A stretch of DNA of 64,000 nucleotides from Escherichia phage RB69, in sequence record NC_004928.1; one strand, given 5' to 3'. A program made the position numbers and the translations under genes. Each line of letters starts with the position of its first letter. Within the stretch, counting starts at the first letter, position 1. Shown in pieces: positions 19,285 to 41,725 of this stretch. The notes under the pieces are model-generated. The model ran no database searches and was not told the DNA's origin. It saw only the letters and a program-made list of their open reading frames with translations.

Positions 19285-19292
19285 GGATTATT

Positions 19293-20402: not shown

Positions 20403-21364
20403 TGTACTCTTTAGAAGAATTTAATAACCAAGCTATAAATGCAGATTTCCAACGAAACAATATGTTTAGTTGTGTATTTGCTACTACACCGTCGACCAAA
20501 TCGTCTTCACTAATTTCGTCAATTGGTAGTTTTGCTTATAATAACTTAGGGTTGGATTCAGATTGGCTAGGATTGACTCAAGGTGATATCAATCAGGGCG
20601 TAACAACCCTGATTACAGCAGGAACACAGAAATTAATTCGAAAATCAGGTGTAAGTAAATATCTGATTGGAGCAATGAGCCAACGTACGGTACAAAGCTT
20701 GTTAGGTGAGTTCACAGTAGGAGCTTATCTGATAGACTTCTTCAATATGGCATATAATAATACAGGTTTAATGATTTATTCTGTAAAAATGCCTGAGAAC
20801 CGATTATCTTATGAAACGGATTTCAACTATAACTCCCCGAACATCCGAATTACCGGTCGAGAAATGGACCCGTTAGTAATAAGCTTTAGAATGGATTCCG
20901 AAGCATCTAACTTTAGAGCAATGCAGGACTGGGTAAACTCAGTCCAAGACCCTGTAACAGGTCTTCGCGCTTTACCACAAGACGTCGAAGCAGATATTCA
21001 GGTTAATTTACATGCGCGAAATGGTTTACCACATACCGCTGTCATGTTCACTGGATGTATTCCTGTTAGCGTCTCTTCTCCTGAGTTAACGTATGATGGT
21101 GATAACCAAATAACAGTTTTTGACGTAACATTTGCTTATCGCGTTATGCAATCAGGTGCTGTAAATAGACAGGCTGCTTTAGAATGGCTGGAATCAGGAC
21201 TTATTAGTAGTGTTTCAGGAATGTTTGGAAATAATCAGAATGATTCTGGACTAGGAAGTGCAGTATCAAGACTTTCTAGATTAGGTGGGACTGCTGGTGG
21301 TGTGTCTAATATAAACACATTGACAGGTGTGGTGAATTCTGCGTCAAGAGTTTTAGGACTATAA
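20402..21364 (+). CDS. 54: baseplate tail tube initiator gp54
   Basis: 320 aa as in T4 gp54. Confidence 0.9.
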   Translation: MYSLEEFNNQAINADFQRNNMFSCVFATTPSTKSSSLISSIGSFAYNNLGLDSDWLGLTQGDINQGVTTLITAGTQKLIRKSGVSKYLIGAMSQRTVQSLLGEFTVGAYLIDFFNMAYNNTGLMIYSVKMPENRLSYETDFNYNSPNIRITGREMDPLVISFRMDSEASNFRAMQDWVNSVQDPVTGLRALPQDVEADIQVNLHARNGLPHTAVMFTGCIPVSVSSPELTYDGDNQITVFDVTFAYRVMQSGAVNRQAALEWLESGLISSVSGMFGNNQNDSGLGSAVSRLSRLGGTAGGVSNINTLTGVVNSASRVLGL

Positions 21365-21369
21365 GAAAA

Positions 21370-21392
21370 AGGGAGACAACGTCTCCCTTTAG
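21370..21392. terminator. hairpin between convergent gene 54 and alt-downstream ORF
   Basis: gggagac-aacg-tctccc with flanking A/T runs. Confidence 0.6.
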
Positions 21393-21396
21393 GGGT

Positions 21397-21690
21397 TTAT
21401 TTACGGAATGAAAGGAATGCTGGTGCTCGGAATGGAGTATCATCTTTAGAGTATTTAACTAATACGACCATTGGTACCTCTGTTTCTAAATGACCTGTCA
21501 CTACACCTATAAAAATTTGGTCGGTGTGCTCAGGGTCACGAAAGTTTTTAAGAGGTTCCATAGCAATATGGAATGCACCTGGGAATACTCGATTCAATTC
21601 GTCAATCACAGCTTCGTTAAAAACATCATCTGCTGGAATAACATTTTCAACTACTAGTTCTTGACCATTAAAGCGAAGCATAGATTTCAT
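21397..21690 (-). CDS. hypothetical protein downstream of alt
   Basis: Track ORF 21397..21762; internal Met at 21690 follows GAGGAA RBS and an early promoter-like element. Confidence 0.55.
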   Translation of the reverse strand: MKSMLRFNGQELVVENVIPADDVFNEAVIDELNRVFPGAFHIAMEPLKNFRDPEHTDQIFIGVVTGHLETEVPMVVLVKYSKDDTPFRAPAFLSFRK

Positions 21691-21719
21691 AACGGTTTCC
21701 TCATGTTGTTGATGGGATG

Positions 21720-21749
21720 ATAGTATAACACATCCATGTGCTTGTAAAC
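21720..21749 (-). promoter_or_regulatory. early promoter-like element (GTTTAC -35, TACTAT -10)
   Basis: Hexamers on minus strand in the alt intergenic region. Confidence 0.4.
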
Positions 21750-23836
21750 TATCCTTGGACAAATTTAAACGGAACTGATTCTAAATCCATTAAAGATGCT
21801 AACAATTTCAAACCTTTAGGTGCGCTAGTTTTTTCTACAAATGAAGAGAACGATACCGGCTCATCTGATTCGATTTCACCTGTCATAGCAACCACCTCAC
21901 CTGTTTCCATGAGAACATCACCATCATAAATGACAGCTTCATCTAACTGGTCTGAGGACATGACTTCAGCTTGAATAAATTTAAGGTTGGATTCTAAACC
22001 TGCACCAGTGTCAGATGACGCATCTGTAATTTTATTTATCTGCAAGAGAATGCCTCTAGGCAAAATAATTTCTTGCTCATTAGGGTGATTACTCAACTGT
22101 CCTGGATAAATCACGTTAACTTTATGAGCACCATCAATAGCCCATCCAACGTTAACACGGATTTGTTCTGGTGCATGCATAGCTGTTCTTACTTGACTAG
22201 GAGAAATAGTAACACCTTCGTCATTATTGTCAATGTTAAGCTCTTTGCGAACGTTCTTCAGGAGCAAGTCCAAGGGCAACGTTCTCTTTAAACCCACCGA
22301 AAATAATAGGAGCTTGTGAAGTGGAAACATAGTTTCTGAAGTAGAATACCTTATTTTTAACCATTGCTTCGTAAATAGGCATTCTGATAGACTGAGCTCT
22401 ATATAACGTTTGTCCTTCAGGTAACGGTCTCCATTTAAAAACGCCGAATCAAGACCATCAATAGCGCGTTTAACTTCATCTTCATCTGCAACATCGTAAA
22501 AATCTGGTTTATAACGACCTAACAACATATTATTGATATCGGTATACGCAGAAGAGGCATATTCACGAATAGCTCGTTTTTCAGCAACAGAGTATTGTTT
22601 AGGGTCCCGATTCATTGTTATATTAAAGGTGCCTCTAGCCGATTCTCGTGCATAAGTATACATCACATTAGACAAGAACGCTGATTTACGTTGTTTCCAA
22701 GTTTTTTCAGATACTTCAGCTAAAACGTCGTCGGCCAGTTGGAAATTATCACGTCTAAAATCTTCAAACCATTCGTCTTTAATAGAGTCTGCAATCTCAT
22801 TTGCAGCTTCAACAAAAGCAGCTAATGCTTTAACAGATGTTGTTTTTTCAGTTTTAATTTTCTTAGCAAACTTTTCTAAAGTTGGCTTAATAACACCACC
22901 ATAAGAAACTTCATCAGCAAATTTAAAGGATTCATCAATACGATTATAAATCTTATTTTCGATATCAGCAACTAAAGTGCCTTTTGCTGTGGACGATGCT
23001 TGGGCTAGTACTATTTCATATGCTTCAGGAAGTAATTCGGCTGTAGCCGGGCCACTAACTTCTTTAGCAGAATTTTCGTATTTCTGGAATAACTCACCTT
23101 CTTGGCGGTCCGCTTCTAAAGATTGACTTGCTGCAATAGCACGACGAGAAATTTTAGTACGAGCAATAACAGGCTTATCTTTACGTTTTTCTTCTACAGC
23201 AGCAATAGAACCAGCGATAGCCGTTTCTTTGGTGACCTTTTCGCCAGTCTTTTTACTCACATAAACTTCGCCAACATCAGAATCTACTTTCGTGTACAAC
23301 TCTGTGTTAATGTTAGGGATGCCTTTAATATCTTCAATGTTGGCATTTTTACGAACCATCATCACATAGGTGTGTTTACCTGTGAATTGATACATTGCCG
23401 ACAATACTTTAAAACGACCACCGGTTTTAGTAGAAACTAAACGAGCAAGAAGAGTTTGAAGCTGCTGTCCACGTCCTTTCAATTTCTTGGTAGGGAATCG
23501 GAACAGAACTGCATCCATACGAAGAGCTTTAACCTGTTCATATACTGTATTGAAAATGGTGTTGATTGCATCAATAGGAGCAGGACCAAGGCCATTTTTC
23601 AATTCAGCGAGATTACCCTTTTCAGATAGACTCATAATAACAACATGAGCGTATTTGTCGCCAAGTTTAACTTGTTTTACAGCATCACCTTCGGAAAGGT
23701 AAGAGAATAAGCGAACTACGATGTTTGTATCGATATCACCAATTTTCCAGACTTGTGGAACTTTAGCTTTAGGGTTCAAATTGACGACAGGAAGACTGCC
23801 TTCAGATTCAAACACTTCATTTAATTGTTCAGACAT
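21749..23836 (-). CDS. alt: Alt-like ADP-ribosyltransferase (packaged); ORF open but an internal segment appears frame-shifted
   Basis: 695 aa; T4 Alt position; ART-type helix motif YTDINNMLLGR and EQEIILPRG in ORF frame, but YRA and STS motif region reads in another frame (see findings). Confidence 0.8.
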   Translation of the reverse strand: MSEQLNEVFESEGSLPVVNLNPKAKVPQVWKIGDIDTNIVVRLFSYLSEGDAVKQVKLGDKYAHVVIMSLSEKGNLAELKNGLGPAPIDAINTIFNTVYEQVKALRMDAVLFRFPTKKLKGRGQQLQTLLARLVSTKTGGRFKVLSAMYQFTGKHTYVMMVRKNANIEDIKGIPNINTELYTKVDSDVGEVYVSKKTGEKVTKETAIAGSIAAVEEKRKDKPVIARTKISRRAIAASQSLEADRQEGELFQKYENSAKEVSGPATAELLPEAYEIVLAQASSTAKGTLVADIENKIYNRIDESFKFADEVSYGGVIKPTLEKFAKKIKTEKTTSVKALAAFVEAANEIADSIKDEWFEDFRRDNFQLADDVLAEVSEKTWKQRKSAFLSNVMYTYARESARGTFNITMNRDPKQYSVAEKRAIREYASSAYTDINNMLLGRYKPDFYDVADEDEVKRAIDGLDSAFLNGDRYLKDKRYIELSLSECLFTKQWLKIRYSTSETMFPLHKLLLFSVGLKRTLPLDLLLKNVRKELNIDNNDEGVTISPSQVRTAMHAPEQIRVNVGWAIDGAHKVNVIYPGQLSNHPNEQEIILPRGILLQINKITDASSDTGAGLESNLKFIQAEVMSSDQLDEAVIYDGDVLMETGEVVAMTGEIESDEPVSFSSFVEKTSAPKGLKLLASLMDLESVPFKFVQG

Positions 23837-23891
23837 AGTGTTTTCCTTTTAGTAATAATTTATATTTATGCCAAAAAGAGCCCGAAGGCTC

Positions 23892-24080
23892 TTAATCCAC
23901 AATCTGGAGCAAAGTACGATAAACTTCAAAATTAGGGCCTTTTTCGTACTTATCAAAATTGTCCATAAAAATATGATAGGAATCGTTATTAGGAAAATCT
24001 AATACAATTTGGGAACAAGAGGTGGAAACATCACCACCATCTTTATTAGCGACAACTACTGTTTCTAAATAAGCTTTCAT
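23892..24080 (-). CDS. hypothetical small protein
   Basis: 62 aa ORF between DNA ligase and alt, followed by hairpin. Confidence 0.55.
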   Translation of the reverse strand: MKAYLETVVVANKDGGDVSTSCSQIVLDFPNNDSYHIFMDNFDKYEKGPNFEVYRTLLQIVD

Positions 24081-25573
24081 TATACACCCGTCTGGTCCCA
24101 GGACCCAAATACGTCTTCAAACGAATCCGCTTCTGTTTTATCAAAACGGAACCCTTTAATAATTGGAAGGAAAATACCTACAGTACCTTCACGGCCTTTA
24201 GAATGAACCCAACCATTACATTCACAATCAGCGATACGTCCAATCAATTTACCTTCACGAGCTTCGGACATTAATCGTTCACGGTCCAAATCATGACGCT
24301 CGTCTAAAGGAATAAGAACCTTTACACCGTCAACTGTTTTATGAGTTGTATCTTTAAAACCTGAACCACAATCGGTTGTAATACGACGACAACGTGATAC
24401 GAGTTCGACACCACCCAATTTGTTAGGGTCTTTAGAGTGTTCATAGTATCCTACAACTTCTAAAGCTATATCAATAACTTCTTTAAATTTAATTAGGTTC
24501 TTAGAGCGTTTGTTTTCCCAATATGAATCACGGTTTTTAAGGATAATACCTTCAAGACCTTGGTCAACATATTTTTTATAAACCACTTTAGCTTCGTCAA
24601 GATTACGAACTAACTGATTTTCAATTGGCTCAATTCGTTTAAAGCCTTCAGCCATATTTTCAAGAGCAGCAAAACGAACATCGTATTTCTGACCTTTAAT
24701 TTTGCCATCAGAATAGACTTCATCTAAAGGAACATAGTCCCAGGCTTGAAGAACCATACCTTCAGCTTCTTTAGGAGAAATAGTCCCTTGAAGAGATTTA
24801 TTTGCTAAACCGTTTGAAGTGCTACGGTCTGCAACTTGTACTTCTTCGGATTCTTCATTATCACCAAATAAGAACGACAGGTCATTTCCTGAGCTCACAG
24901 CCTTTTTAATATCAAATGAATGATAAACTAATTCGCCGTCGATTAAAACCCCATTAGGGTGTCTTTCACGAGCTTCTTTAGTCATTTCCATTAGTTCATC
25001 TGCTAATAGGGTAAGACCATGGTATTCATTACCAGCACGAGAAAAGAATTGAACACCATCATCGCGAACTTCAGCGAAACAACGAGCACCATCTGCTTTT
25101 AATTGAGCAAATGCAGGCCATTTAATATTTTTAGTAATCAATTTCTCATCATATGCAGATGCTAACATCTGTGGTTGCAATTGAATAAGTCCTGGCCACA
25201 CCTTATTCGCGATAGACACTGAAGCACCTACTTCAAGGTCGCGCATCATTACACGACGAAGGACTTCTACATCATCAGGTTTACCGTCAGCGATATAACC
25301 CATGAGCTCTTTAATTGCAGCATTACCAGTGAGTTTACGAGTGGCTAATGTGAACTCAATAAAATCCAACATGTCATCTAATTCAAGAAGACCATATGCC
25401 TGAGACCTTTCACCTGGCCCAGGCCATTTCTTAATATAATACTGAATGCCACGTGCATATGTTAAACGATACACGCGTTCAAGTAATTTGTTGTCCTTAT
25501 TTTTCTTAAGGATTTCCTGTTTTGTTTTAGTAGAACCGATCGCAGCTATTTGGTTTAAAATATCTAAAATCAT
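24080..25573 (-). CDS. 30: ATP-dependent DNA ligase gp30
   Basis: 497 aa; adenylation motif KADGAR; T4 ligase similarity. Confidence 0.95.
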   Translation of the reverse strand: MILDILNQIAAIGSTKTKQEILKKNKDNKLLERVYRLTYARGIQYYIKKWPGPGERSQAYGLLELDDMLDFIEFTLATRKLTGNAAIKELMGYIADGKPDDVEVLRRVMMRDLEVGASVSIANKVWPGLIQLQPQMLASAYDEKLITKNIKWPAFAQLKADGARCFAEVRDDGVQFFSRAGNEYHGLTLLADELMEMTKEARERHPNGVLIDGELVYHSFDIKKAVSSGNDLSFLFGDNEESEEVQVADRSTSNGLANKSLQGTISPKEAEGMVLQAWDYVPLDEVYSDGKIKGQKYDVRFAALENMAEGFKRIEPIENQLVRNLDEAKVVYKKYVDQGLEGIILKNRDSYWENKRSKNLIKFKEVIDIALEVVGYYEHSKDPNKLGGVELVSRCRRITTDCGSGFKDTTHKTVDGVKVLIPLDERHDLDRERLMSEAREGKLIGRIADCECNGWVHSKGREGTVGIFLPIIKGFRFDKTEADSFEDVFGSWDQTGV

Positions 25574-25839
25574 TTGATATCCTCGATTTTGGTTACGGTT
25601 CTATTATAAGCCACTTCATCTAGAAGCGATTTCAGCGTTTTCTGATAAGTGGTAATCCGTTTACCGAGTCCTTCAACATAATATTCTGAAATGTAGATGA
25701 ACCCTTGTTCAACACACTCTTTAAATATTTCTGCGTCTTTTACTGAACGAAACAATGGCCGGTCTCGAAAGAACATGTTAACGTGACCGTAGTCACGCGT
25801 TGTGTTTTTGCCATCTGTAATATCATGAACTACAAACAT
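25570..25839 (-). CDS. hypothetical protein (30.1-like)
   Basis: 89 aa ORF overlapping ligase start. Confidence 0.6.
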   Translation of the reverse strand: MFVVHDITDGKNTTRDYGHVNMFFRDRPLFRSVKDAEIFKECVEQGFIYISEYYVEGLGKRITTYQKTLKSLLDEVAYNRTVTKIEDIK

Positions 25840-25848
25840 AATTAACCC

Positions 25849-26664
25849 TTAACAATTTATAGACCAAGTCCATTTAGACGAATCTAAAGGAAAGTTTTGA
25901 ATCGTCCACCACGGCTGCATATCGGTTGGTCCTGGAGTTCGCCAGGTGTACGGATTTGACGGAGCGCCAATTTGATTAGGCCATGCGCCTGGACTTGTTG
26001 CACCAGATTCTTTAAGCAAATCCGCCAATCGTTTTAAAAGGTCTTCACGATCTGAATCTGAATTATGCTCGGGCGGAACCAAACGAGATTCAATATCATC
26101 CCACGTGTGTACACGTTGTGCAGTGCGAGGAATATCATCACGTTCACCACGAGCCAACCAATAAATCGGTACATTAAGAATTTCTGCCGCATGGTCACAG
26201 TGATGAGCTAAATCGTCAACGTAACAAATCACGTTATATTTTGTTTTAGCTAGTTCGAATAATTGTTCCTTTGAAGAATCATGACCACACATCATTACTT
26301 CAGAGAAAGCGCCTGGGAACAAAGCATTCAAATTAAATTGTCTATTCAATCGAGCATCAATTGAATCACCTAGCGCCGTCACGGCTACAAAATTATAGTC
26401 TTCTTTTAGTTTATTGATAACTCGAAGAGCATCCGAATAAGGCGCTAAGTAACGAATAAAATCAGAGCGATTATATTTTTCTATTAATTGTTTACCAAGG
26501 TTATCGTCGGTATTGAACAGTTTACCAGGAGAAATAAATTTTTCGTCCTGAATCATTTTTAAAATATGTTCTAATGGAAGATTATATTTTTGGGCAAAAT
26601 AAGGAAGACCAGATTGCCAGCTTAAACATACACCATCAATATCAGTCAAAATAGTAGGCTTCAT
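25849..26664 (-). CDS. HAD-superfamily hydrolase-like protein with Trp/Pro-rich C-terminal tail
   Basis: 271 aa; N-terminal DIDGV motif typical of HAD phosphatases. Confidence 0.6.
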   Translation of the reverse strand: MKPTILTDIDGVCLSWQSGLPYFAQKYNLPLEHILKMIQDEKFISPGKLFNTDDNLGKQLIEKYNRSDFIRYLAPYSDALRVINKLKEDYNFVAVTALGDSIDARLNRQFNLNALFPGAFSEVMMCGHDSSKEQLFELAKTKYNVICYVDDLAHHCDHAAEILNVPIYWLARGERDDIPRTAQRVHTWDDIESRLVPPEHNSDSDREDLLKRLADLLKESGATSPGAWPNQIGAPSNPYTWRTPGPTDMQPWWTIQNFPLDSSKWTWSINC

Positions 26665-26706
26665 AAAGAGTCTCTTAATAGGTTTAACACATCAATAAAT
26701 TCAGCT

Positions 26707-27129
26707 TCAAGTTAGTATTGTATCATCTTTTGTTAGACCACTAGCCATGCTGTGCTTCAAAATTTTTCCTTTAGAGGCTTGTAAGGCATCACGAAACCCC
26801 TTGTTTTGGATCGCGGCTTCAAAATATGCATTTGTGTATAATTCTTTCCACGCTTCGGAGTATCTTGAAAATGGAACTCCTAACCAGAAGAGAGTCCCAC
26901 GGTCCTGAGCTCTTGCATAAGACCTTCCTGCTTGCTGTGCAGCCAATCCAGACAACCCAAATATACTATGTTGTTGTTCAACATTTTTCACCTTACATCC
27001 TTGGAGAAATCCTTCAAGACCTCCGAATTGAATACCATCCATAACAAAAGGCCATTGAGCAAAGTTACTTAATGCACATGACGGCCACTTGAAATTACTT
27101 CTAATCTCTAACTCAGGCATCTTTAACAC
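26707..27129 (-). CDS. NADAR / YbiA-like (DUF1768) domain protein
   Basis: 140 aa; SNFAQWPF...DG...EGFLQGCK resembles the YbiA/NADAR N-terminal signature (recalled). Confidence 0.55.
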   Translation of the reverse strand: MLKMPELEIRSNFKWPSCALSNFAQWPFVMDGIQFGGLEGFLQGCKVKNVEQQHSIFGLSGLAAQQAGRSYARAQDRGTLFWLGVPFSRYSEAWKELYTNAYFEAAIQNKGFRDALQASKGKILKHSMASGLTKDDTILT

Positions 27130-27328
27130 TTATAATTTCAACATCAGCCCAATGACCATAACCAGGTATACGGTCTTCGATAGATAAATTTCCGTCATTT
27201 TTAGGCATTTTAATTGACGTAACGTATGGTTCTAAACGATTTTCTGCGTGTGGAGAAACATCTGTCACACGATAAGTAACTTCAATCGTTTCCATACCAA
27301 ACAATTTCTGGATTAATTTTTTAAGCAT
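27113..27328 (-). CDS. hypothetical protein
   Basis: 71 aa ORF in operon-like array. Confidence 0.5.
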   Translation of the reverse strand: MLKKLIQKLFGMETIEVTYRVTDVSPHAENRLEPYVTSIKMPKNDGNLSIEDRIPGYGHWADVEIISVKDA

Positions 27329-27332
27329 TTTA

Positions 27333-27677
27333 TTAGAACCTCATCTGAAAGCCATGTGATTTAACATTACCGCCGCCAATATCAGAAATGTTAATTTCAC
27401 TTGCAATCGAAGGATCGATGTCAATTTCACGATTAAGTTTAGTGATAGCCAAAGTATCATGCCCATTTACTGTACGAAACTCCAAAGGACATACTACGTT
27501 GACATAGTGTTTAATTGACTCGCTAGTAGGTTGCAAATGGACCGGAAGGTTTTTAGGTGCTTTAGAGAAAACAACTTCACAAAAGTTTTTGCGGGTATCA
27601 AAATAAGTGGTCATAAACATAATATTTTCCTCAATTGGGAAGCCGAAGCTCCCAGTTAAATTAGATATCGAATTCAT
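27333..27677 (-). CDS. hypothetical protein
   Basis: 114 aa ORF. Confidence 0.5.
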   Translation of the reverse strand: MNSISNLTGSFGFPIEENIMFMTTYFDTRKNFCEVVFSKAPKNLPVHLQPTSESIKHYVNVVCPLEFRTVNGHDTLAITKLNREIDIDPSIASEINISDIGGGNVKSHGFQMRF

Positions 27678-28026
27678 TAAGAACTACATCAAAGATTGCT
27701 TCGAGATGTTCAGGTTTAGCTCGGTTACTCAGGATATGACGAATCCAAGTTTTAACCAAAAGTTTACGATTAACACCGTTCCAGCAAGGATGAGTACCTA
27801 AATCACGCTGACGGAAATCATCATCTAATGCAATTTTGAAGTTGGAACCTTCCATCGTGATTGAAACCGTGATGCCATTTTCAAATCGCATATAAACGTA
27901 ATTAGGAGTCATGCACTGTTCGATTTCACAAACTGTACCGTTTTTGTGTTTCCATAAGCAAATAACTTCAGAAGAACCAGCGATACCGTTAGAAACATAT
28001 TTACGTTCGAAGTTGATGTAGTTCAT
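27661..28026 (-). CDS. hypothetical protein
   Basis: 121 aa ORF preceded by early promoter-like element. Confidence 0.55.
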   Translation of the reverse strand: MNYINFERKYVSNGIAGSSEVICLWKHKNGTVCEIEQCMTPNYVYMRFENGITVSITMEGSNFKIALDDDFRQRDLGTHPCWNGVNRKLLVKTWIRHILSNRAKPEHLEAIFDVVLNEFDI

Positions 28027-28067
28027 TTTATTCTCCAGATGTTTAAGTTGTTTGTTGGTACAGGTCT

Positions 28068-28096
28068 ATAATAACATATCCTGTACCAAAGTAAAC
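28068..28096 (-). promoter_or_regulatory. early promoter-like element (GTTTAC, 17 nt, TATTAT) within dyad symmetry
   Basis: Minus-strand hexamers; 8-bp inverted repeat ggtacagg/cctgtacc brackets the -10. Confidence 0.45.
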
Positions 28097-28101
28097 ATTT
28101 T

Positions 28102-28473
28102 TTATTTGATTTTTGTCCACTTAGCTGAATCAATAACACCTTTTGCTTTAATCTTCTCGATTAATGACTCTGCGCGATTTCTGGCATTTTCGTACCATAC
28201 AACGTCTTCAGAGTAACCAGTTTCTTCATCTTCGTAAGTTTTAGAACGAATACAGCCATAAACTGTAGAATTCAGACGGTAAATTTCACCAGTGAAAAAG
28301 TTTTCGATTTCGATATGATAACAAAAATCGTCTGAAGGGCCATCAGGAGTTGTACAATAAACCACATCACCTTGAACTGAACGAACCATCCACTGTAACT
28401 CGTTAACAACTTGAGATTTATATCCATCATGGTCACGGCATTTAATTGTAGCATTTAAATTGATAGTGTTCAT
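28102..28473 (-). CDS. hypothetical protein
   Basis: 123 aa ORF preceded by early promoter-like element. Confidence 0.55.
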   Translation of the reverse strand: MNTINLNATIKCRDHDGYKSQVVNELQWMVRSVQGDVVYCTTPDGPSDDFCYHIEIENFFTGEIYRLNSTVYGCIRSKTYEDEETGYSEDVVWYENARNRAESLIEKIKAKGVIDSAKWTKIK

Positions 28474-28514
28474 TTTATTCTCCGGTTGTTTTATTGATTA
28501 GGTGGTACAAGTCT

Positions 28515-28543
28515 ATAGAAACACATCCTACAGGAGAGTAAAC
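28515..28543 (-). promoter_or_regulatory. early promoter-like element (GTTTAC -35, weak -10)
   Basis: Similar in sequence to the 28068-28096 element. Confidence 0.35.
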
Positions 28544-28602
28544 ATCTTTTTAAACTTTTTCTGCCCTAAACGCACAAAAGGGAGACCGAAGTCTCCCTAA
28601 AA

Positions 28603-28782
28603 TTATGCAACAACCTTTCCAAAACGAGAAGCATCATCTCGAAGAACTGCACGTGCTCTGCGCATGATCTTCTCAACGGTTTGATTAATACGAGAGTTCG
28701 ACCCACGCTTGTATCCAGCGCGTTTAGAGGTACCATCAACTTTCTTTTCAACTGCTTTCTTTGCTTTAGCTTGTTTTGCCAT
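28603..28782 (-). CDS. small basic protein (59 aa)
   Basis: Hand translation MAKQAKAKKAVEKKVDGTSKRAGYKRG...; followed by C(UUCG)G hairpin; below track cutoff. Confidence 0.45.
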   Translation of the reverse strand: MAKQAKAKKAVEKKVDGTSKRAGYKRGSNSRINQTVEKIMRRARAVLRDDASRFGKVVA

Positions 28783-29045
28783 TATAAATTCTCTTTAAAT
28801 GAAAATGCAGGACTTATTGGCGTTGCCTGCGCAAGCCCTCAACGGGAACATAGGTTTTGGATATTTAACGACAGGATAACCATAAACCTCGTCATCATAC
28901 CAACCACGACTTAGACAGATAACCTTTTTCTGACGCGTGATAGTACAAAATACATTCAAGAGGTACACCGTAAAACTGCCGGGGTCTTAAAACTATAATG
29001 ATTCGCAAATCATTAATCAGACAGTTCGACGGCTCCTCGATTTAC

Positions 29046-29294
29046 TTACTTCAGGGTAATAACAAAATGACGTACTGCTTTACGAGCCGCAGAAGCCAGA
29101 GGCTTAGCAAATTTCAGTTCATCTTTAGCTTCCAGTTCAGCAGCCAGAGTAGCCTGAGCAGGATTCAGATGTTTGAAATAACGCAGGATTTCCAGTGCTT
29201 CGGCTTCAACATCAATAGATGCGCCGTAATTGTCATGGCCGTTATTCCATGCATGGCGTTGCAGTTCAAGAGCGTGTTGTAATTGTTTAATCAT
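29046..29294 (-). CDS. rIII: rIII lysis inhibition accessory protein
   Basis: 82 aa, MIKQLQHALELQR... as recalled for T4 rIII; position upstream of 31. Confidence 0.85.
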   Translation of the reverse strand: MIKQLQHALELQRHAWNNGHDNYGASIDVEAEALEILRYFKHLNPAQATLAAELEAKDELKFAKPLASAARKAVRHFVITLK

Positions 29295-29418
29295 TTTAAA
29301 TTCTCAATTCGAGATAATATTTAGTAGCCACGTTCTTCTGAATTTCACCTTCTTTCGACAAGTCTCTCAGTTGTAGGCTACCGCTTAGAAGAGTGTTCTC
29401 TTCATATAGTTATTTATA

Positions 29419-29751
29419 TCACTTATAAAGACACGGAATAGCTTTATAGTGGCATGTTACGAATTTCTGTTTAATTTCTTTAGGTTGTTTAAGTCCCAAA
29501 GCCACAAATGGATGTGGAACATTTCGAATTTGTCCAACCGGTAGTGGAGTCAAATCACCGACTTCAACAAAACCTTCAGGAACATCAGGACCTACAGAAT
29601 GAACTACACATAGTTCAGGAACTTCACCTTGAACACGTTTACCAATCACAAGTCCTGATTCAGTAACTTCTTCATCACCTGCTTGAGCGGGTTCAGAAAC
29701 CAGAATGACATATTCACCAACAGCACGAATTGGGAGTTGTACTTCAGACAT
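29419..29751 (-). CDS. 31: co-chaperonin gp31 (GroES analogue)
   Basis: 110 aa, near-identical to recalled T4 gp31. Confidence 0.93.
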
Positions 29752-29808
29752 CTTATTTCCTTGTTGTTTGACGATAGATTAATAATACCATACTATTCGT
29801 AAAGCATA

Positions 29809-30117
29809 TTACATAAGAAGCAAACGTTCGACCGGAGTACCATCAACCGAAATTACTTTATCAAGGCGGAAAGAACGCCACTGACCTAACTTGGTATCGA
29901 ATGCTCGAACTGATTCACGAGGTTCAGAACGAACTTCTGTTGCCGGATTGTTATTTTCATATTTGACTTCAAGTTCATCGCGCGAGGCAAACATCGTACG
30001 AATATCACCGTTAGCCTTTTCAAATACAACACAATGAACGCCTACAGACAGAATAGTTTTAATACGTTCACGAAGAACCATAGTTTCTTGTTCAGTTAAA
30101 ATCATATTATTCACCAC
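29809..30117 (-). CDS. hypothetical protein (31.1-like)
   Basis: 102 aa ORF. Confidence 0.55.
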   Translation of the reverse strand: MVNNMILTEQETMVLRERIKTILSVGVHCVVFEKANGDIRTMFASRDELEVKYENNNPATEVRSEPRESVRAFDTKLGQWRSFRLDKVISVDGTPVERLLLM

Positions 30118-30181
30118 AAAAGTTTCGGATTTGTTCCCAATTCAGAGAACGAAGATTATTACCGAGAAGTACTGAATTACT

Positions 30182-30691
30182 TCAATACCAGCTTGGTTTT
30201 AGAATGTCTGCCCAATTTTCAGGAGATCGGTTGTATAATTCTGCGTATACAACCTTTTTAATACCTGACTGCGTAATAGCTTTAGTGCAATCAGGACACG
30301 GAGAAAGCGTAGTATATAACGTAGCGCCTTCAATAGAATTACCTTTACGAGCTGCAAACAAAATTGCATTCAATTCCGCATGGATTTCGTTATTAGCAGA
30401 CCATGCACTATGAGCGGCCCGATGTTCTTTAGCCAAAACAAAATTATCTGCCCGTCCAAATGCTGTAGTGCCTTCTTTATGTCCAGCAACGATGGCCGGG
30501 CTTGATTTATTCTTCAACCAACCATTTTCGGATGCATGTTCGCAACAGTTAACGCCACCTGCGGGTGAACCATTATATCCAGTAGAGATAATGCGTCCAT
30601 CTTTTTCAATGACCGCACCAACTTTCCATGAACAACATTTTGATTCTTGAGAAATCAAATAAGCAATTTGAAGATATGTGCTAGCTTTCAT
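30182..30691 (-). CDS. cd: dCMP deaminase, C-terminally truncated by local frame disruption
   Basis: 169 aa ORF with HAE and PCPDC zinc motifs; conserved C-terminus (LNWEQIRNFCGE) lies downstream after an in-frame TGA (see findings). Confidence 0.85.
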   Translation of the reverse strand: MKASTYLQIAYLISQESKCCSWKVGAVIEKDGRIISTGYNGSPAGGVNCCEHASENGWLKNKSSPAIVAGHKEGTTAFGRADNFVLAKEHRAAHSAWSANNEIHAELNAILFAARKGNSIEGATLYTTLSPCPDCTKAITQSGIKKVVYAELYNRSPENWADILKPSWY

Positions 30692-30942
30692 TATAGTGTT
30701 CCGTATACGCGAGTTGCTTCAACTAAACCGTCACTGCCTAATTTAAGGCTAGTAATCTGGTCACCATCTTTAGGATTAACGATTATGAGAAAAGAACGTG
30801 GAGATTCTTGAATAACTCGTAATGTTGCATCTTGGAAACGTTCAGACACCTTATTGATGAGTGCTTGAGCAAATTCTTGTACTTTAATCTGAAATTCGTG
30901 TACTGTAATTGGGGTTTCACTTAGCCTTTCGATTTCCCTCAT
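30691..30942 (-). CDS. hypothetical protein
   Basis: 83 aa ORF abutting cd. Confidence 0.5.
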   Translation of the reverse strand: MREIERLSETPITVHEFQIKVQEFAQALINKVSERFQDATLRVIQESPRSFLIIVNPKDGDQITSLKLGSDGLVEATRVYGTL

Positions 30943-30989
30943 TGTGTTGGTAGAGTTATAGTATCACAACTCCACCATGTTGTAAACCA

Positions 30990-31265
30990 TTAAATTGCTT
31001 TGCATTCAATTTTTTGTGTACCGAAATTGATATCACATTGGATAACTAAATCACCGTCAAGATCAAATACCACTATGACGTGTGCAGACCCAGGGAGAAG
31101 AGTAATAGCAATAGAATCTACTTGGTCTGGGAGCAAAGCATTGAGTACATGAGTTAGTTGAGCATGAACTCTGAGTTCGGCTGCATTATCAAGCACTTCA
31201 AACATATTATTAGCAATAATCTGACTGAAGACTACCTTTACAATTTCAGAATAAGTTGGGAACAT
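30990..31265 (-). CDS. hypothetical protein
   Basis: 91 aa ORF. Confidence 0.5.
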   Translation of the reverse strand: MFPTYSEIVKVVFSQIIANNMFEVLDNAAELRVHAQLTHVLNALLPDQVDSIAITLLPGSAHVIVVFDLDGDLVIQCDINFGTQKIECKAI

Positions 31266-31272
31266 AATTACC

Positions 31273-31497
31273 TCAGTGTACAGTATTTACTTTAACTCGA
31301 ACAACAAATCGCTCGGTCGGTTCACCTACAGGAACAAACTCTACATGATATTCGCCTTTGTAACGAGTATTCAGATCATTACGAATTCCTGCGAGTTTGT
31401 TGATTAATGTAGGACTCATATTAAGTCCCACTAGTTTACGAAGCATTTTGTATGCTTCATCTTCGATTTCATGATGTTTATCGTACATAGTTTTCAT
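31273..31497 (-). CDS. hypothetical protein
   Basis: 74 aa ORF. Confidence 0.5.
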   Translation of the reverse strand: MKTMYDKHHEIEDEAYKMLRKLVGLNMSPTLINKLAGIRNDLNTRYKGEYHVEFVPVGEPTERFVVRVKVNTVH

Positions 31498-31668
31498 TTA
31501 ACCATTCAATTGCCTGGTCGACGTTATCAAATATACCGCCGTCCAAACGTTCTTCATGCTCATAGTCCAGCACATCAATACCGAACTGTCCATTTACTAA
31601 AGGCCAGGCTACAAACAAATATTCTTTATGCTGTTCGATGGCCTCAATCACTTCATATAATCGTTTCA

Positions 31669-31669
<1 letters not shown>
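31478..31669 (-). CDS. hypothetical protein
   Basis: 63 aa ORF. Confidence 0.45.
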
Positions 31670-32755
<1,086 letters not shown>

Positions 32756-32756
<1 letters not shown>

Positions 32757-33055
32757 TATTTTATTCCTAAGAAAGTTTCAAGAATACGAATGTTATGCTC
32801 GCGTCGGTCTTTATTAATTTCAGCAACGTTTTTATTAATTGACGTACTTCTAACGTTTGAAGAAATAAATTTAATCATATGACTTTTGAGTTGTTGCAAA
32901 TCCAAACCTTTTTCTTTAGCAGCTTTACGAAGAGCTTTACCTGCTTCATCTAGGGCCTTTGCTGCATCTTTATCATAATTGACAAGTGACATTCCACGGC
33001 AGATATCAATATACTCATCCGACCATTTGATGTAATTTTCTAGTAATATTTTCAT
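32756..33055 (-). CDS. hypothetical protein
   Basis: 99 aa ORF with early promoter-like element upstream. Confidence 0.55.
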
Positions 33056-33083
33056 TTAGATTTCCTCAATTATCCATAGGAGC

Positions 33084-33113
33084 ATTATACTCTGCTCCCG
33101 AGAGTTTGTAAAC
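33084..33113 (-). promoter_or_regulatory. early promoter-like element (GTTTACA -35, TATAAT -10) with dyad symmetry
   Basis: Minus-strand hexamers; ggagca/tgctcc inverted repeat around the -10. Confidence 0.5.
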
Positions 33114-33337
33114 TATTTTACTAAAGATTCGATATACTCATGAAGAGCTTTAGTCGCTACTGCCCACTTGTTCTGATATTCATTTTTCAGATTAGCACGA
33201 GACTGAACTAACAAGCGGTCATTAGTCGGAGGCAAAGATTCTAATCGTTGAATCTGACGGCCATAAATCATAGCCGCCATTTCAGATTCATAGATAAGCC
33301 CTTTAATGTATTCATGCTGTTCTTTAGTCATTGGCAT
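33113..33337 (-). CDS. hypothetical protein
   Basis: 74 aa ORF. Confidence 0.5.
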   Translation of the reverse strand: MPMTKEQHEYIKGLIYESEMAAMIYGRQIQRLESLPPTNDRLLVQSRANLKNEYQNKWAVATKALHEYIESLVK

Positions 33338-33618
33338 TTTTCCTCTTTTAAACCACTACGATAATAACATAACATAGTCTTCTGGTCATGTACATATCTT
33401 TTTACGTCGTTTAACCAGATACGAAATTCTTGAGAGTCTTCAAATGGCATTCCAACCCATGGATTACCATCAATAACCTTTACTTGCCATTTCTGGTTAT
33501 ATTCAACAATAGATTCAGGCCATTGCGGATGTAAAGTTTCTTTAGGGCTTAAGGGCACATCCTGGGCACATCCAGCCAAAATGCCAATAGATAATACAAC
33601 TGCGGTTAATTTAATCAT
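33328..33618 (-). CDS. outer-membrane lipoprotein, probable o-spanin
   Basis: 96 aa; signal peptide with lipobox LAGC; overlaps upstream gene. Confidence 0.7.
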   Translation of the reverse strand: MIKLTAVVLSIGILAGCAQDVPLSPKETLHPQWPESIVEYNQKWQVKVIDGNPWVGMPFEDSQEFRIWLNDVKRYVHDQKTMLCYYRSGLKEEKCQ

Positions 33619-33971
33619 TCTGAGAGCTTCCTGAGGTCTTCTGCAAAGGAATCGAAGGACCTGTTGATTTGTTTTTCGACCAATCCTGGTTTACTTGCCA
33701 CCACGTTCTTCTTCTTCGAATCCTTACGGAGCTTTTCATTTTCGGCCTTAAGTTGGTCAACTAAAACACGGTTCTTATAAGTCATTTCTTCGATTGACTG
33801 ATATTGAACCTTGAAGTCGTCTAATACTTTAGCATTGTTTTTAGCGGTCTCTTTGACAGAAGCTAATTCAGTATTCAACGAATCAACTTTGTTGTTTAAG
33901 ACAACTATTGTTACCGTAGAAACTAGAGCAAAAGCTGCTACTATAGCATAAATCGGATTTACTTTAAGCAT
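33615..33971 (-). CDS. membrane-anchored coiled-coil protein, probable i-spanin
   Basis: 118 aa; N-terminal TM helix then charged coiled coil; precedes the lipoprotein gene. Confidence 0.7.
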   Translation of the reverse strand: MLKVNPIYAIVAAFALVSTVTIVVLNNKVDSLNTELASVKETAKNNAKVLDDFKVQYQSIEEMTYKNRVLVDQLKAENEKLRKDSKKKNVVASKPGLVEKQINRSFDSFAEDLRKLSE

Positions 33972-34459
33972 GTTTTAATAATCTCAATGATTTCATCTCG
34001 GGATAATCCATTGATAAGAACGGTTTTCAAACCATCACACTGGATTTTGTACGATTCAAACAATACACACAACTCTTCTGCTGTATGATACGGGCTTGAA
34101 ATTCCGAGGCGGTTGAATTTGTCGGTAAGAGGGTCGCAAATGATGTAGAATTTTATACCTGCGATATGTACGTTTGGTTGACTAATATTAATGAACACAT
34201 TAGCGTCGTATTTAGTCAAATTATTTTGAAGAAATTCTACCATGGCATTAACTGCTTCCGGCATCGCTTCGCGTTTCTCTTCAGCGTATCGGGTGGAATA
34301 CTCTTTTTGTTTTACTTTCTTTTTAAGATTTTTGGCCAGTGTAACACGGAGGTCAGTAAGATAACCAACTGGACGTCCTTTCTTAAAGACTCGGATTCCG
34401 TCAGTTGTGTCTCCAAAAGCGGTTACGACCATATCGTTAGTAATCAATTGCATATTCAT
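33959..34459 (-). CDS. hypothetical protein (position and size consistent with T4 Alc)
   Basis: Track ORF 33959..34522; Met at 34459 preceded by GAGGAG RBS gives 166 aa. Confidence 0.45.
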   Translation of the reverse strand: MNMQLITNDMVVTAFGDTTDGIRVFKKGRPVGYLTDLRVTLAKNLKKKVKQKEYSTRYAEEKREAMPEAVNAMVEFLQNNLTKYDANVFINISQPNVHIAGIKFYIICDPLTDKFNRLGISSPYHTAEELCVLFESYKIQCDGLKTVLINGLSRDEIIEIIKTCLK

Positions 34460-34521
34460 AATTTTCTCCTCGTGTTGTTGATAAAAGCCATAGTAACACC
34501 TTCCTTGGTGTTTGTAAACCA

Positions 34522-35655
<1,134 letters not shown>

Positions 35656-35702
35656 TCAGTTAGTTTTTTTTAAATTGTACCACAATCCTTGTGGTATGTA
35701 AA

Positions 35703-36113
35703 CTACTTTTTCTTATGTTGGATATTCCAAGGCGGGTTGAACTTTTTGATAAAAAGTGGTTCTTCAAGGTCCATTGTTGCGATGGTCATTGAACCAAGTT
35801 CGTTGGTGACTGAAAGGTCAAAACATTGGCGGGCCCAGAATTCAACCTTTTTGCCTTGCATTAAGGCATCCAAAATCATAAGTGATTTTCTTGAATCTGA
35901 AGTCTGGTCTTTTCGATTTATGGCTGTTCGATAATAGTTAATGCGTTTCTTTAAATTCTTGGTTTTACCAATATACACAAGTTCGTCATCTATAGCAATA
36001 GCATATATAACATTTTTCTTATTAGGGGCATCAATGGTTTTAATTGTTGCATCTTCTAATAGCTCCAATTCTATATATTTAATAAAGGAATATTCGGCGG
36101 CAATATCTTTCAT
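35703..36113 (-). CDS. denA: endonuclease II (GIY-YIG-like)
   Basis: 136 aa as in T4 DenA; position upstream of nrdB. Confidence 0.85.
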   Translation of the reverse strand: MKDIAAEYSFIKYIELELLEDATIKTIDAPNKKNVIYAIAIDDELVYIGKTKNLKKRINYYRTAINRKDQTSDSRKSLMILDALMQGKKVEFWARQCFDLSVTNELGSMTIATMDLEEPLFIKKFNPPWNIQHKKK

Positions 36114-36139
36114 AATAAAGTGGGACCGAAGTCCCGTCC

Positions 36140-37312
36140 TTAGAAATATTTTTTGTATGAATTGATTACATTTTGGTCTACATCATTATCAATTTGTGCG
36201 ACAAGATAAGAACTGATTTCAACTTCCTGAGGAGCTGCTTGAACTAAATCAGAGTTCAGATATTCACGAATCCAAGGATACGGATGCTTGGTCGGAGCAT
36301 CAGTAATTGGACATGGCAAACCGCACTGTTTCATACGAGACACAGTCAAGTAATCAACAAAAGCACACATACTCTGTGTATTGATACCTGGACATGTACC
36401 GTCTTTAAAGAGGTGTGCAGCCCATTCCTTGTACTTGACTATTAACTTCCATAAAAATGTCAACTGCTTCTTGTTCACATTCTTTAGCAATTTGAACCCA
36501 CTCATCGCCATCAGTACCAGATTGAAGTTGACGGATAATGTACTGAGTACCCTGAGATGGAGTTGTTCGTCACGAGCAATGAACTTCATAATCTTTGCAT
36601 TACCTTCCATAATTTCCATATTTTTATGGAAGTTGAAAGTACATGCAAATGATACGTAAAAACGAATAGCTTCTAAGGCGTTGATAACATGCAAACAGAG
36701 ATAAAGAGACTTCATTAAATCGCGCTTGGCGTTAAACATTATTTCTTCGTACATCTCAATATCATTCTGCTGGCATGAGCCTATTGAACACTCATAAACT
36801 TCCTTAGCATTTTCCCAATTACGAGTCTTGACTAGAACATCGTCATAATATTTACCTATTGATTCAGCTCGTTTCATGATTGCTTCGTCTAATACAATCT
36901 CATCAAATACTTTGGATGGATCGGTATAAAGATTTCGCATAATATGAGTATATGAACGAGAGTGAATAGTTTCACTGAATGTCCATGTTGCAACCCACGT
37001 ATCTAATGAAGGGTCGGAAATCAGTGCCATAAGTACCGCAGATGGGGCCCTGCCTTGGATAGAATCCAATAATGATTGATACTTAAGATTGTTTGTACAG
37101 ATGTCCTGTTGGAACTGAGGAAGCTTATTGAACTGTGCAGAGTCCAACATCAAGTTTACCTCTTCGGGGCGCCAGAAAAATGACAGGATTTCTATAAGTT
37201 CTTCAAAAACTTTATGACGCTGAATATCATACCGTGCAAGACCAAGACCAGAACCAAAGAACATCGGTTCGTTCAAAACATCGACTTGTTGTGTATTAAA
37301 AACTGTACTCAT
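36140..37312 (-). CDS. nrdB: ribonucleotide reductase small subunit NrdB; intronless, with internal out-of-frame segment
   Basis: 390 aa ORF; N- and C-terminal parts match class Ia NrdB; about 50 codons in the middle are read out of the conserved frame (see findings). Confidence 0.9.
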   Translation of the reverse strand: MSTVFNTQQVDVLNEPMFFGSGLGLARYDIQRHKVFEELIEILSFFWRPEEVNLMLDSAQFNKLPQFQQDICTNNLKYQSLLDSIQGRAPSAVLMALISDPSLDTWVATWTFSETIHSRSYTHIMRNLYTDPSKVFDEIVLDEAIMKRAESIGKYYDDVLVKTRNWENAKEVYECSIGSCQQNDIEMYEEIMFNAKRDLMKSLYLCLHVINALEAIRFYVSFACTFNFHKNMEIMEGNAKIMKFIARDEQLHLRVLSTLSVNFNLVLMAMSGFKLLKNVNKKQLTFLWKLIVKYKEWAAHLFKDGTCPGINTQSMCAFVDYLTVSRMKQCGLPCPITDAPTKHPYPWIREYLNSDLVQAAPQEVEISSYLVAQIDNDVDQNVINSYKKYF

Positions 37313-37367
37313 TATATTTTCTCACTTAGTTATTAACTCATCCATGAGTAAATTATAATCAAAAGTC

Positions 37368-39623
37368 TTAAAGCTTACAAGCAGAGCAATCTTCAGCTTT
37401 AGGTGTTTCTAATTCATAGTCATCTGTACCTGACCCATCACGAGTGTTATGATAGTAGAGATTTTTTCCGCCAAAGTACCAGAAGTAAAGCAGATCGTCA
37501 AGCATTACCGACATTGGCACTTTACCTTTCTCAAATACAGCAGGGTCATAATAAGTATTAGCAGAAGCAGATTGGCACACCCATTTCAACATGATAGCAA
37601 CTTGGGTCAAATAAGGTTTATTACCTTTCTTAGCAAGTTTCCACGCGTAGTCGTAAAGACTCATGTTATGTTCGATATTAGGAACAACCTGTCGGAAGTT
37701 GCCTTCTTTAGATTCTTTAATACTTACAGGTCCACGAGGTGGTTCTATACCATTTGTGCTATTTGAGACTTGACTGCTTGATTCACATGGCATGAGAGCA
37801 CTAAGTGTACTGTTACGAATTCCATGTTCTTTTGAGTTCAGCTCGAAGTTCTTCCAGTCACAGACGTAGTTCGGGGCTGCGATTTGGTCAATCTTTTTAT
37901 TGTACCAGTCGATAGGTAATTCGCCTCTAGACCATTTAGTGTCTGAATAATACTCACAAGGTCCTTTTTCTTTGGCGAGTTTGATTGAAGCTTTGATAAG
38001 GCCATATTGCAATCTCTCGAACAATTCATGAGTCAAATAGTTAGCGTCTTCATATGAAGCAAAGTTAGAAGCTAACCATGCAGCATAGTTCGTCACACCG
38101 ACACCGAGATTTCGACGCTTTTTAGCTTTTAAAGCTTCTGGAACCGGATAATCTTGATAGTCTAACAGGTTATCAAGTGCACGTACTTGTACTTCAGCAA
38201 GTTCATTAATTTTATCTTGGTCTTGCCAATCAAATTTATCTAATACAAAAGCAGATAACGTGCATAAACCAATTTCAGCATCAGGACCATTCACATCATT
38301 AGTTGGAATAGCGATTTCACAACATAAGTTACTCTGACGAATTGGAGCTTTTTCACGAATAAACGGAGTGTAGTTATTCGTGTTATCAACAAACTGTGGA
38401 TAAATTCGAGCAGTACCAGAACGTTCAGTCATGAACAATTCAAAGAGTTCTAGTGCTTTGATTCTTTTCTTTCTGATTGTTGGGTCTTTTTCAGCTTTCT
38501 CATAAAGCTCACGGAATTTATCTTGATCTTCAAAGAATGAGTAATATAGTTCGCCTGACATTTCGTGAGGGCTAAATAAAGTAATATAATCATTTTTACC
38601 AAGGCGTTCCATCATGAGGTCATTAATCTGAATTCCGTAGTCCATATGTCGAATACGGTTTTCATCCACGCCTTTGTTATTTTTCAGAACTAATAGGTTC
38701 TCTACTTCTAAGTGCCACATTGGATAATACGCTGTAGCAGCACCACCACGAATACCACCTTGAGAACAAGATTTTACTGCAGTTTGGAAATGTTTCCAGA
38801 ATGGAATAACACCCGTATGTCGAACTTCACCCATACCGATCTTAGAACCTTCTGCACGAAGCATACCAACGTTGATACCGATACCAGCTCGTTTAGAAAT
38901 ATATTCAATAATTGATGCTGAAGTTTTGTTAATAGATTTTAACGAATCACCGGCTTCAATAACTACACAACTAGAGAACTGGCGAGTTGGAGTACGAGCA
39001 CCTGCCATAATTGGGGTTGGCAATGAAACTTGATGAGTAGAAACGGCATCATAAAAACGAATAATATGTTTCAAACGGTCATGAGTTTCGTCTTGGTGTA
39101 AGGCCATGCCAATAGCCATGATAGCAAACTGGGGAGTTTCATAAATCTTACCAGTTGTTTTATCTTTAACCAGGTATTTTTCTTTAAGCTGCATAGCACC
39201 AGCATAAGTCAGATCAAAATCTCGCTCATGTTTAATCCGAGAATCAAGATAAATGATTTCTTCTGCAGAATATCTAGACAACAACTCAGGATCATATTTG
39301 CCTTCATTAACACAATAAGAAATATGGTCGATAAAAGCAGGCGGTTCAAACTGCCCATATACATCTTTACGAAGTGCAAACATTAGCCCTTTGGCGGCGA
39401 CATACTGATAATCAGGTTCTTCGACAGAAATCGAGTTAGCTGCAACTTTAATACAAATCTTCTGGATATCTTTGGTGCTCATCCCGTCGACAAGATGGGT
39501 CTTAATTTCTTCGTACAATTCATATGGGTCGATTTGTGTTCCTTCACATTGCCAAGTTAAGACTTGAATAATTTTCTGTGCATCAAAATTTTGGGATACA
39601 CCACTGCTCTTAGTTACTTGCAT
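37368..39623 (-). CDS. nrdA: ribonucleotide reductase large subunit NrdA
   Basis: 751 aa; active-site NLCCE and C-terminal CSACKL cysteines. Confidence 0.95.
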   Translation of the reverse strand: MQVTKSSGVSQNFDAQKIIQVLTWQCEGTQIDPYELYEEIKTHLVDGMSTKDIQKICIKVAANSISVEEPDYQYVAAKGLMFALRKDVYGQFEPPAFIDHISYCVNEGKYDPELLSRYSAEEIIYLDSRIKHERDFDLTYAGAMQLKEKYLVKDKTTGKIYETPQFAIMAIGMALHQDETHDRLKHIIRFYDAVSTHQVSLPTPIMAGARTPTRQFSSCVVIEAGDSLKSINKTSASIIEYISKRAGIGINVGMLRAEGSKIGMGEVRHTGVIPFWKHFQTAVKSCSQGGIRGGAATAYYPMWHLEVENLLVLKNNKGVDENRIRHMDYGIQINDLMMERLGKNDYITLFSPHEMSGELYYSFFEDQDKFRELYEKAEKDPTIRKKRIKALELFELFMTERSGTARIYPQFVDNTNNYTPFIREKAPIRQSNLCCEIAIPTNDVNGPDAEIGLCTLSAFVLDKFDWQDQDKINELAEVQVRALDNLLDYQDYPVPEALKAKKRRNLGVGVTNYAAWLASNFASYEDANYLTHELFERLQYGLIKASIKLAKEKGPCEYYSDTKWSRGELPIDWYNKKIDQIAAPNYVCDWKNFELNSKEHGIRNSTLSALMPCESSSQVSNSTNGIEPPRGPVSIKESKEGNFRQVVPNIEHNMSLYDYAWKLAKKGNKPYLTQVAIMLKWVCQSASANTYYDPAVFEKGKVPMSVMLDDLLYFWYFGGKNLYYHNTRDGSGTDDYELETPKAEDCSACKL

Positions 39624-39710
39624 ATATTCCTCAGTATAGGTTGATAGACATTACTCCAAACGGGATAGTATTTATCCCGTTAATTTATTATACACTTTTA
39701 AACTGAAGCG

Positions 39711-39965
39711 TTAATTATTCTTAGCAATAATTTCTTTGTATTCTTTAGGTGTCAAGACTGTGATATCGAAATAAACCAATGGTTCTTTTTCCATACCGTA
39801 ACCACCACAAAATTCACGATATTCATAAATTCGTTCATGTGAATAACAAATGAATCGTTCACCTTTAACTGTGATTTCACTATTCGGTGAAGGGATATCT
39901 AGTTCGGTAGGATTTTTCATTTCAAAAATTGTGGTGCCATATGAATTAATAAAACGTAAAATCAT
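39711..39965 (-). CDS. hypothetical protein
   Basis: 84 aa ORF between nrdA and td. Confidence 0.55.
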   Translation of the reverse strand: MILRFINSYGTTIFEMKNPTELDIPSPNSEITVKGERFICYSHERIYEYREFCGGYGMEKEPLVYFDITVLTPKEYKEIIAKNN

Positions 39966-40826: not shown

Positions 40827-41410
40827 TTATACACGCTCTCAGTAATTTCGGTGAGTTCATCGATTCTGTAGTAATGAGATTCTACCATAGAACGTTGAAG
40901 CATAATATCTTGGACGAAATCTTTATCAAGTTGAACATCGGAATTAACACGACATTTCTTAATGATTTTAGTCATCACGATTTCATCGGCATAAGGCAGT
41001 GCTTGTTTTAATAATGCAGGACCACCAATAACCGAGACATCAACATGTTCAGTAGAAAGTTTAAACGGTACGTCGGTTGAAGGGCTAAACAGGTTAATTT
41101 CACCACCCATTACCAAGGTAATAAATTCTGCTTGGGTGATATAGAACCGTGCAAGTTCATCAGTTTTAGTCCTAGGCAGTTTTCTGGCCATATCAGTGAC
41201 AACCATATGAGTACGATCTGGTAGTAGACGAGGTAATGATGCAAAAGTCTTAGCACCCATAACCATTACAGTGTTTTTAGTGCGAGCAACAAAGTTACTC
41301 ATATCTTGTTTGATATGCTTCCATGGAAGTCCATCACCTAATCCAAAAGCATATTCCAGTTTATCATCAACTGTTTTAGACGGTGCGCATGCGAATACTA
41401 ATTTAAGCAT
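40823..41410 (-). CDS. frd: dihydrofolate reductase
   Basis: 195 aa; overlaps td start; T4 Frd similarity. Confidence 0.9.
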   Translation of the reverse strand: MLKLVFACAPSKTVDDKLEYAFGLGDGLPWKHIKQDMSNFVARTKNTVMVMGAKTFASLPRLLPDRTHMVVTDMARKLPRTKTDELARFYITQAEFITLVMGGEINLFSPSTDVPFKLSTEHVDVSVIGGPALLKQALPYADEIVMTKIIKKCRVNSDVQLDKDFVQDIMLQRSMVESHYYRIDELTEITESVYK

Positions 41411-41413
41411 TTT

Positions 41414-41662: not shown

Positions 41663-41725
41663 TTTATTCTCCTCTTCACTTTTATTTGATAGGGCTACTA
41701 TAAAATAGCCCTATCTTGTTATAAA

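Follow-up and report, generated by a model that had tools for sequence, protein, structure and literature searches.

The early stop in the dCMP deaminase gene of the bacteriophage RB69 reference genome is very probably an artefact of the deposited record

The dCMP deaminase gene (cd) of bacteriophage RB69 lies on the minus strand of the sequence analysed here, a 64,000-nt window of the reference genome NC_004928/AY303349, which is a Sanger-era record of 2003. Its annotated product has 169 residues, and an exact look-up against about 15 billion sequences identified it as AAP76123.1/NP_861914.1, the Cd dCMP deaminase. The neighbouring ORFs were likewise matched exactly, the 98-residue ORF downstream being AAP76122.1 (gp31.1) and the 83-residue ORF upstream being AAP76124.1 (Cd.2). 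The gene and its stop are laid out as follows.

30182..30691, minus strand: annotated 169-residue Cd ORF, from the ORF list, its translation and the exact look-up
30182..30184, minus strand: premature TGA, produced where the T-GA within ATT GAA (Ile-Glu in GIEV) falls into the shifted frame
30107..30691, minus strand: the whole cd gene as it would read with three extra bases removed, 582 nt or 193 codons plus stop

As deposited, the translation of the 169-residue ORF ends in ...ENWADILKPSWY, followed by TGA. Beyond this stop the cd frame stays open as SNSVLLGNNLRSLNWEQIRNFCGE and runs to a TAA at 30109..30107, which sits one base ahead of the ATG of the next gene. Of the residues that follow the stop, the final 17 match the C-terminus of the 193-residue Cd of Mosigvirus phages without a difference and are clearly homologous to T4 Cd. 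Across the stop itself, the neighbouring frame reads NQAGIEVIQYFSV... and contains QAGIEVIQY. A preliminary description of this DNA had held that cd is truncated by a premature TGA arising from indels, that the frame resumes after the TGA with the conserved Cd C-terminus, and that GIEV is encoded in another frame; translation and alignments bear out all three statements. The same description gave the product as 169 residues long and lacking about 25 C-terminal residues. The length stands, while the loss has to be restated, as 28 native residues (166-193) are missing from the deposited product and four foreign residues (PSWY) are added.

Against the PF00383 profile (dCMP_cyt_deam_1), the 169-residue ORF scores 93.5 bits with a cut-off of 25 and holds the complete zinc-binding region (residues 3-150), and the repaired 193-residue Cd scores 92.9 bits. 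The motifs HAELNA (104-109) and SPCPDC (130-135) are the same as in T4 Cd, so that both the H-A-E and the P-C-x-x-C signatures are present. With T4 Cd (PDB 1VQ2), the repaired RB69 protein aligns from residue 1-193 to residue 1-193 with zero gaps (E 1.6e-94), whereas the deposited ORF fails to be collinear over the full length, with residues 166-193, including the GIEV stretch, missing. This failure is attributed to the record and not to the phage. Once repaired, the GIEV stretch also aligns to the ComEB and RibD deaminase profiles, the ComEB dCMP-deaminase match extending to residue 179. Furthermore, the Mosigvirus phages HX01, PhAPEC2, phiC120, ST0 and others encode a 193-residue Cd whose C-terminus, ...ADILKQAGIEVIQYSRNNLRSLNWEQIRNFCGE, is identical to that of the RB69 frame.

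The position of the gene is conserved as well, with cd occupying the same place in T4 and RB69 within the block cd.2 - cd - 31.1 - 31 - rIII. Unlike RB69, most other Mosigvirus phages carry a gene resembling DAHP synthase between cd and cd.2. In HX01, phiC120, PhAPEC2 and DCP548 this intervening gene is about 1 kb long and is annotated as phospho-2-dehydro-3-deoxyheptonate aldolase (PF00793, DAHP_synth_1). The two genes abut in RB69 (30691/30692), and ECO111 5-P is arranged likewise.

The lesions within cd were mapped by aligning the gene with those of HX01 and ECO111 5-P and with near-identical re-sequenced contigs; the four outgroups named in the list are the Mosigvirus phages phiC120, ECO111 5-P, PhAPEC2 and DCP548, which were aligned over 20-44 kb of the window for polarising its differences.

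30195..30196, minus strand: first extra base, a doubled C (AAAAC[C]AAGC), seen against relatives and near-identical contigs and absent in all four outgroups
30167..30168, minus strand: second extra base, a doubled T (ACT[T]CTC), seen against relatives, near-identical contigs and outgroups
30162..30163, minus strand: third extra base, a doubled G (TCG[G]T), seen against relatives, near-identical contigs and outgroups
30232, minus strand: substitution found only in the window, A for G, giving Asn for the conserved Asp154, seen against near-identical contigs and outgroups

Thus, alignment to both relatives and re-sequenced contigs gives three single-base insertions and zero deletions, each insertion doubling its neighbouring base, and all four changes are packed into 70 nt (30162..30232). 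The first insertion (+1) turns GCT GGT ATT GAA into ..C TGG TAT TGA and so brings in a stop four codons on. The second and third follow 28 and 33 nt downstream of the first, so that the three are spread over about 34 nt. Given that together they amount to +3, the native frame resumes at NNLRSLNWEQIRNFCGE (NNLRS). The proposal that one 1-nt insertion and one 1-nt deletion, 14 nt apart, had created the stop is consequently wrong, and the supposed deletion site, GAAGTAATT, is the same in the window as in the relatives.

The inserted bases were then sought in other sequences. The phage collection searched does not hold the RB69 record, and its best matches are other Mosigvirus genomes, which are 95-98% identical to the window in nucleotide sequence across cd. 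None of the 149 Mosigvirus records that cover the site carries any of the three bases; over a 71-nt query spanning the site, the best identity among these records is 95.8% (68/71), with exactly three gaps. An exact-pattern scan of IMG/VR gave 0 matches to the context of the first insertion or to that of the second and third, and a scan of JGI metagenome contigs for the first context only also gave 0 matches. The lone match among GTDB genomes, in a Nostoc MAG, was rejected as a coincidence of 27 nt whose flanks bear no similarity. At the protein level, the 169-residue Cd was found on a single 167,560-bp contig, and the remaining members listed for its 90% cluster all have 193 residues. Homologues ending in ...KPSWY, which would have spoken for a genuine terminus, were absent from the 40 members examined of this 91-member cluster. 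A search of the literature found no report of errors in the RB69 reference or of a truncated Cd.

Sequences much closer to the window than any GenBank phage, of which the nearest are only about 95-96% identical to it, were retrieved from Logan short-read assemblies by exact protein look-ups. They come from at least eight runs (SRR16629520/23/27, SRR16634590/98 and SRR29299745/47/48), for which a literature search by SRA run number found no paper. The comparison was made at the level of assemblies and covers 7509..60760 of the window (53 kb), with 1-7508 and 60761-64000 lying outside it. Over this range the contigs are 99.84-99.99% identical to the window. Wherever they differ from it, they are concordant with one another, the exceptions being two mismatches within 10 nt of contig ends. 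From this level of identity, and from the one-sided polarity of the differences described below, we infer that the runs probably represent RB69 stocks.

All three contigs examined that reach the 3' end of cd (L003, L005 and L018) are without the three inserted bases. L003 (SRR16629527) and L018 (SRR16634598) span the gene and encode the intact 193-residue protein, while L005 (SRR29299747) covers its 3' part. By exact look-up, the 193-residue Cd is present on seven Logan contigs, and the repaired Cd and the repaired ribonucleotide reductase subunit NrdA are both found only in Logan assemblies. The preliminary description had left two options for the 169-residue product, a truly truncated enzyme or a sequencing artefact. 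With near-identical short-read assemblies that carry an intact 193-residue gene and lack all three extra bases, the former is unsupported and the latter is favoured.

To which side the differences belong can be judged from the outgroups. Natural divergence of two lineages would split the derived states roughly equally between them. Of the 43 differing columns within 20-44 kb, 41 show the outgroups in agreement with the re-sequenced contigs; the other two, one matching the window and one a tie, both fall in an alignment-ambiguous 4-nt spot at 26710-13. Hence, the contigs show the ancestral state of what is probably the same strain, and the anomalies lie on the branch of the reference. Judged by these alignments, the re-sequenced lineage has essentially no private changes in 20-44 kb and the reference nearly all of them.

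The character of the differences is equally distinctive. About 36-40 events were counted across the 53 kb, nearly half of which (about 17) are indels. As many as 33 of the events fall in 22.2-37.9 kb, where they form patches of 70-240 nt; the patches of the window lie at 22253-22422, 26710-26970, 30162-30232, 30850-30936, 32149-32389, 36431-36552, 37098-37188 and 37830-37853. The cd lesion is thus private to one record, and the differences around it are one-sided, indel-rich and clustered, all of which are marks of an artefact. This pattern fits reads from poorly covered Sanger sequencing or from a single clone, unlike divergence between phage stocks.

Several other genes of the record are affected in a comparable manner.

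21749..23836, minus strand: alt (ADP-ribosyltransferase), with an extra G at 22253, a missing A at 22422 and substitutions at 22315 and 22411
30691..30942, minus strand: cd.2, with a patch at 30850..30936 made up of three substitutions and an extra base at 30936, at the 5' end
31669..32568, minus strand: pseT (polynucleotide kinase), with six substitutions found only in the window, at 32149..32389 (241 nt)
36140..37312, minus strand: nrdB, with an extra base at 36433, a missing base at 36552, substitutions and a missing 3-nt block at 37188
37368..39623, minus strand: nrdA, with an extra T at 37830 and a missing C at 37853
44800..45672, minus strand: rnh, with a missing A at 44803, just before the stop

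Alt has about 56 residues read in a different frame from that used in the re-sequenced contigs and the four outgroups, although the product still has 695 residues. NrdB has about 40 residues out of frame and is 390 residues long against 391, its patches being 36431..36552 and 37098..37188. In NrdA, a patch of seven residues is read out of frame as KNFELNS against EELRAEL, and because of this patch in the reference protein an exact look-up of the NrdA of the window found no match. RNase H has 290 residues in the reference against 305 in the re-sequenced contigs, with the C-terminal 15 residues, FVKSGLSKLTSVINEF, being lost. The reference Cd.2 has 83 residues and the N-terminus MREIER, compared with 78 residues in both the re-sequenced contigs and other Mosigvirus phages. 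Lastly, the pseT substitutions lead to four amino-acid changes; the four outgroups match the contigs at 6/6 of these sites, with one outgroup having a third base at 32269.

Given these observations, we consider it very likely that the truncation of cd is artefactual, belonging to the deposited record alone, and that RB69 encodes a normal 193-residue dCMP deaminase of the T4 type. The 70-nt patch at 30162..30232 would then hold four miscalls, namely three doubled bases and one substitution, of which the first doubled base would shift the frame into the TGA while the other two would merely happen to restore it. A point against it is that random errors would show no special tendency to sum to +3, an outcome with a chance of about 1 in 3. 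As to the cause, errors of base-calling or editing, or one mutated clone, are presumably to blame, rather than a mutation carried by the sequenced phage stock. The sequencers of T4-like genomes have noted that certain stretches were poorly represented in the plasmid libraries used for shotgun sequencing and could be obtained only when gaps were closed by PCR (PMC1524935). Similarly, early Sanger genomes such as that of Mycobacterium smegmatis (PMC1852416) contained conserved genes broken by single-base indels that vanish on re-sequencing, as they do in RB69, and the two cases are alike in having several such genes per record and clustered errors. The test applied to RB69 differs in being indirect, as it consists of independent public short-read assemblies together with outgroup polarity and not of sequencing the same DNA again.

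The main alternative is that the lesion is real and confined to the material sequenced, either a cd-null stock or a plasmid or PCR clone in which a gene toxic to the host had been inactivated, with RB69 elsewhere being intact. We hold this to be improbable. It gains some weight from the concentration of the differences in 22.2-37.9 kb, among early genes that serve nucleotide metabolism or modify the host (alt, pseT, cd, nrdA, nrdB), and from the under-representation of some regions in plasmid libraries that was reported for these projects (PMC1524935). A sequenced stock carrying a real null allele would also be expected to grow. The cd gene is non-essential in T4, and since it is dispensable there, such a stock would have been viable. 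Nevertheless, a single inactivating mutation does not look like a cluster of four changes in 70 nt, three of them insertions and one a substitution, and the two insertions past the TGA could not have been selected. Moreover, similar multi-error patches with compensating pairs of indels occur in at least five other genes, and about 36-40 private events per 53 kb, with the opposite branch showing essentially none over the polarised part, far exceed the usual divergence of laboratory stocks. That the RB69 stock of 2003 was truly cd-null, with alt, nrdA, nrdB and rnh scrambled as well, seems to us very improbable; were it so, a laboratory lineage would have shed several functions of nucleotide metabolism and still grown on E. 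coli.

Two further explanations would accept the sequence as written. Full-length Cd could be made from it by programmed ribosomal frameshifting or translational bypass, as the original frame resumes past the stop, with the conserved C-terminus left open. T4-like phages do have a case of bypassing, in gene 60, which lends such recoding a precedent. For cd, however, three separate shifts would be required, in an arrangement that is present in 0/149 relatives and absent from the near-identical contigs. Nor is the TGA flanked by a matched pair of take-off and landing codons (TAT TGA, with no TAT downstream in register), and AAAACCAAG shows no slippery heptamer of the form X XXY YYZ; we regard recoding as next to inconceivable. 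Alternatively, cd could be a phase-variable contingency locus, toggled in phage populations by slippage in a simple repeat. Such loci have recently been reported for T2 and T4, at homopolymer runs, in a study that counted repeats of six or more bases (bioRxiv 10.1101/2025.10.21.683753). The sites in cd, by contrast, are single doubled bases beside A4, CT and CG, none of them a long repeat of this kind, and all the short-read assemblies examined at this site are alike in being intact there; the likelihood of phase variation is accordingly negligible.

If the early stop is an error of the record, its biological weight is small, as RB69 would have an ordinary full-length dCMP deaminase. Its practical weight is moderate. 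The record NC_004928/AY303349 serves as the type genome for Mosigvirus and is in wide use as a reference for mapping, and the 169-residue Cd has been propagated into RefSeq and UniProt (Q7Y4T4). At least five more proteins appear to be mis-translated in the window of this record, namely Alt, NrdA, NrdB, RNase H and Cd.2. With variant calling against the RB69 reference, every RB69 sample would be expected to appear fixed for mutations at these sites, and structural or evolutionary work on the deposited proteins would inherit the out-of-frame segments.

Several smaller differences were seen in addition. In the gene for gp51 (ORF 15110..15865, plus strand), the window has an extra TGA/GAT unit at 15259..15261, within a short GAT repeat, so that gp51 has 251 residues in the window against 250 in three independent assemblies. 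This extra unit is in frame and may represent an error or a genuine difference in repeat length. Gene 30.3 (ORF 26707..27129, minus strand) has a displaced base by its stop codon, at 26710..26713, and a scrambled 4-nt block at 26967..26970, where HS stands against RR. Further differences found only in the reference lie at 28519, 29043, 42490 and 56604, and they include single-base changes in intergenic DNA.
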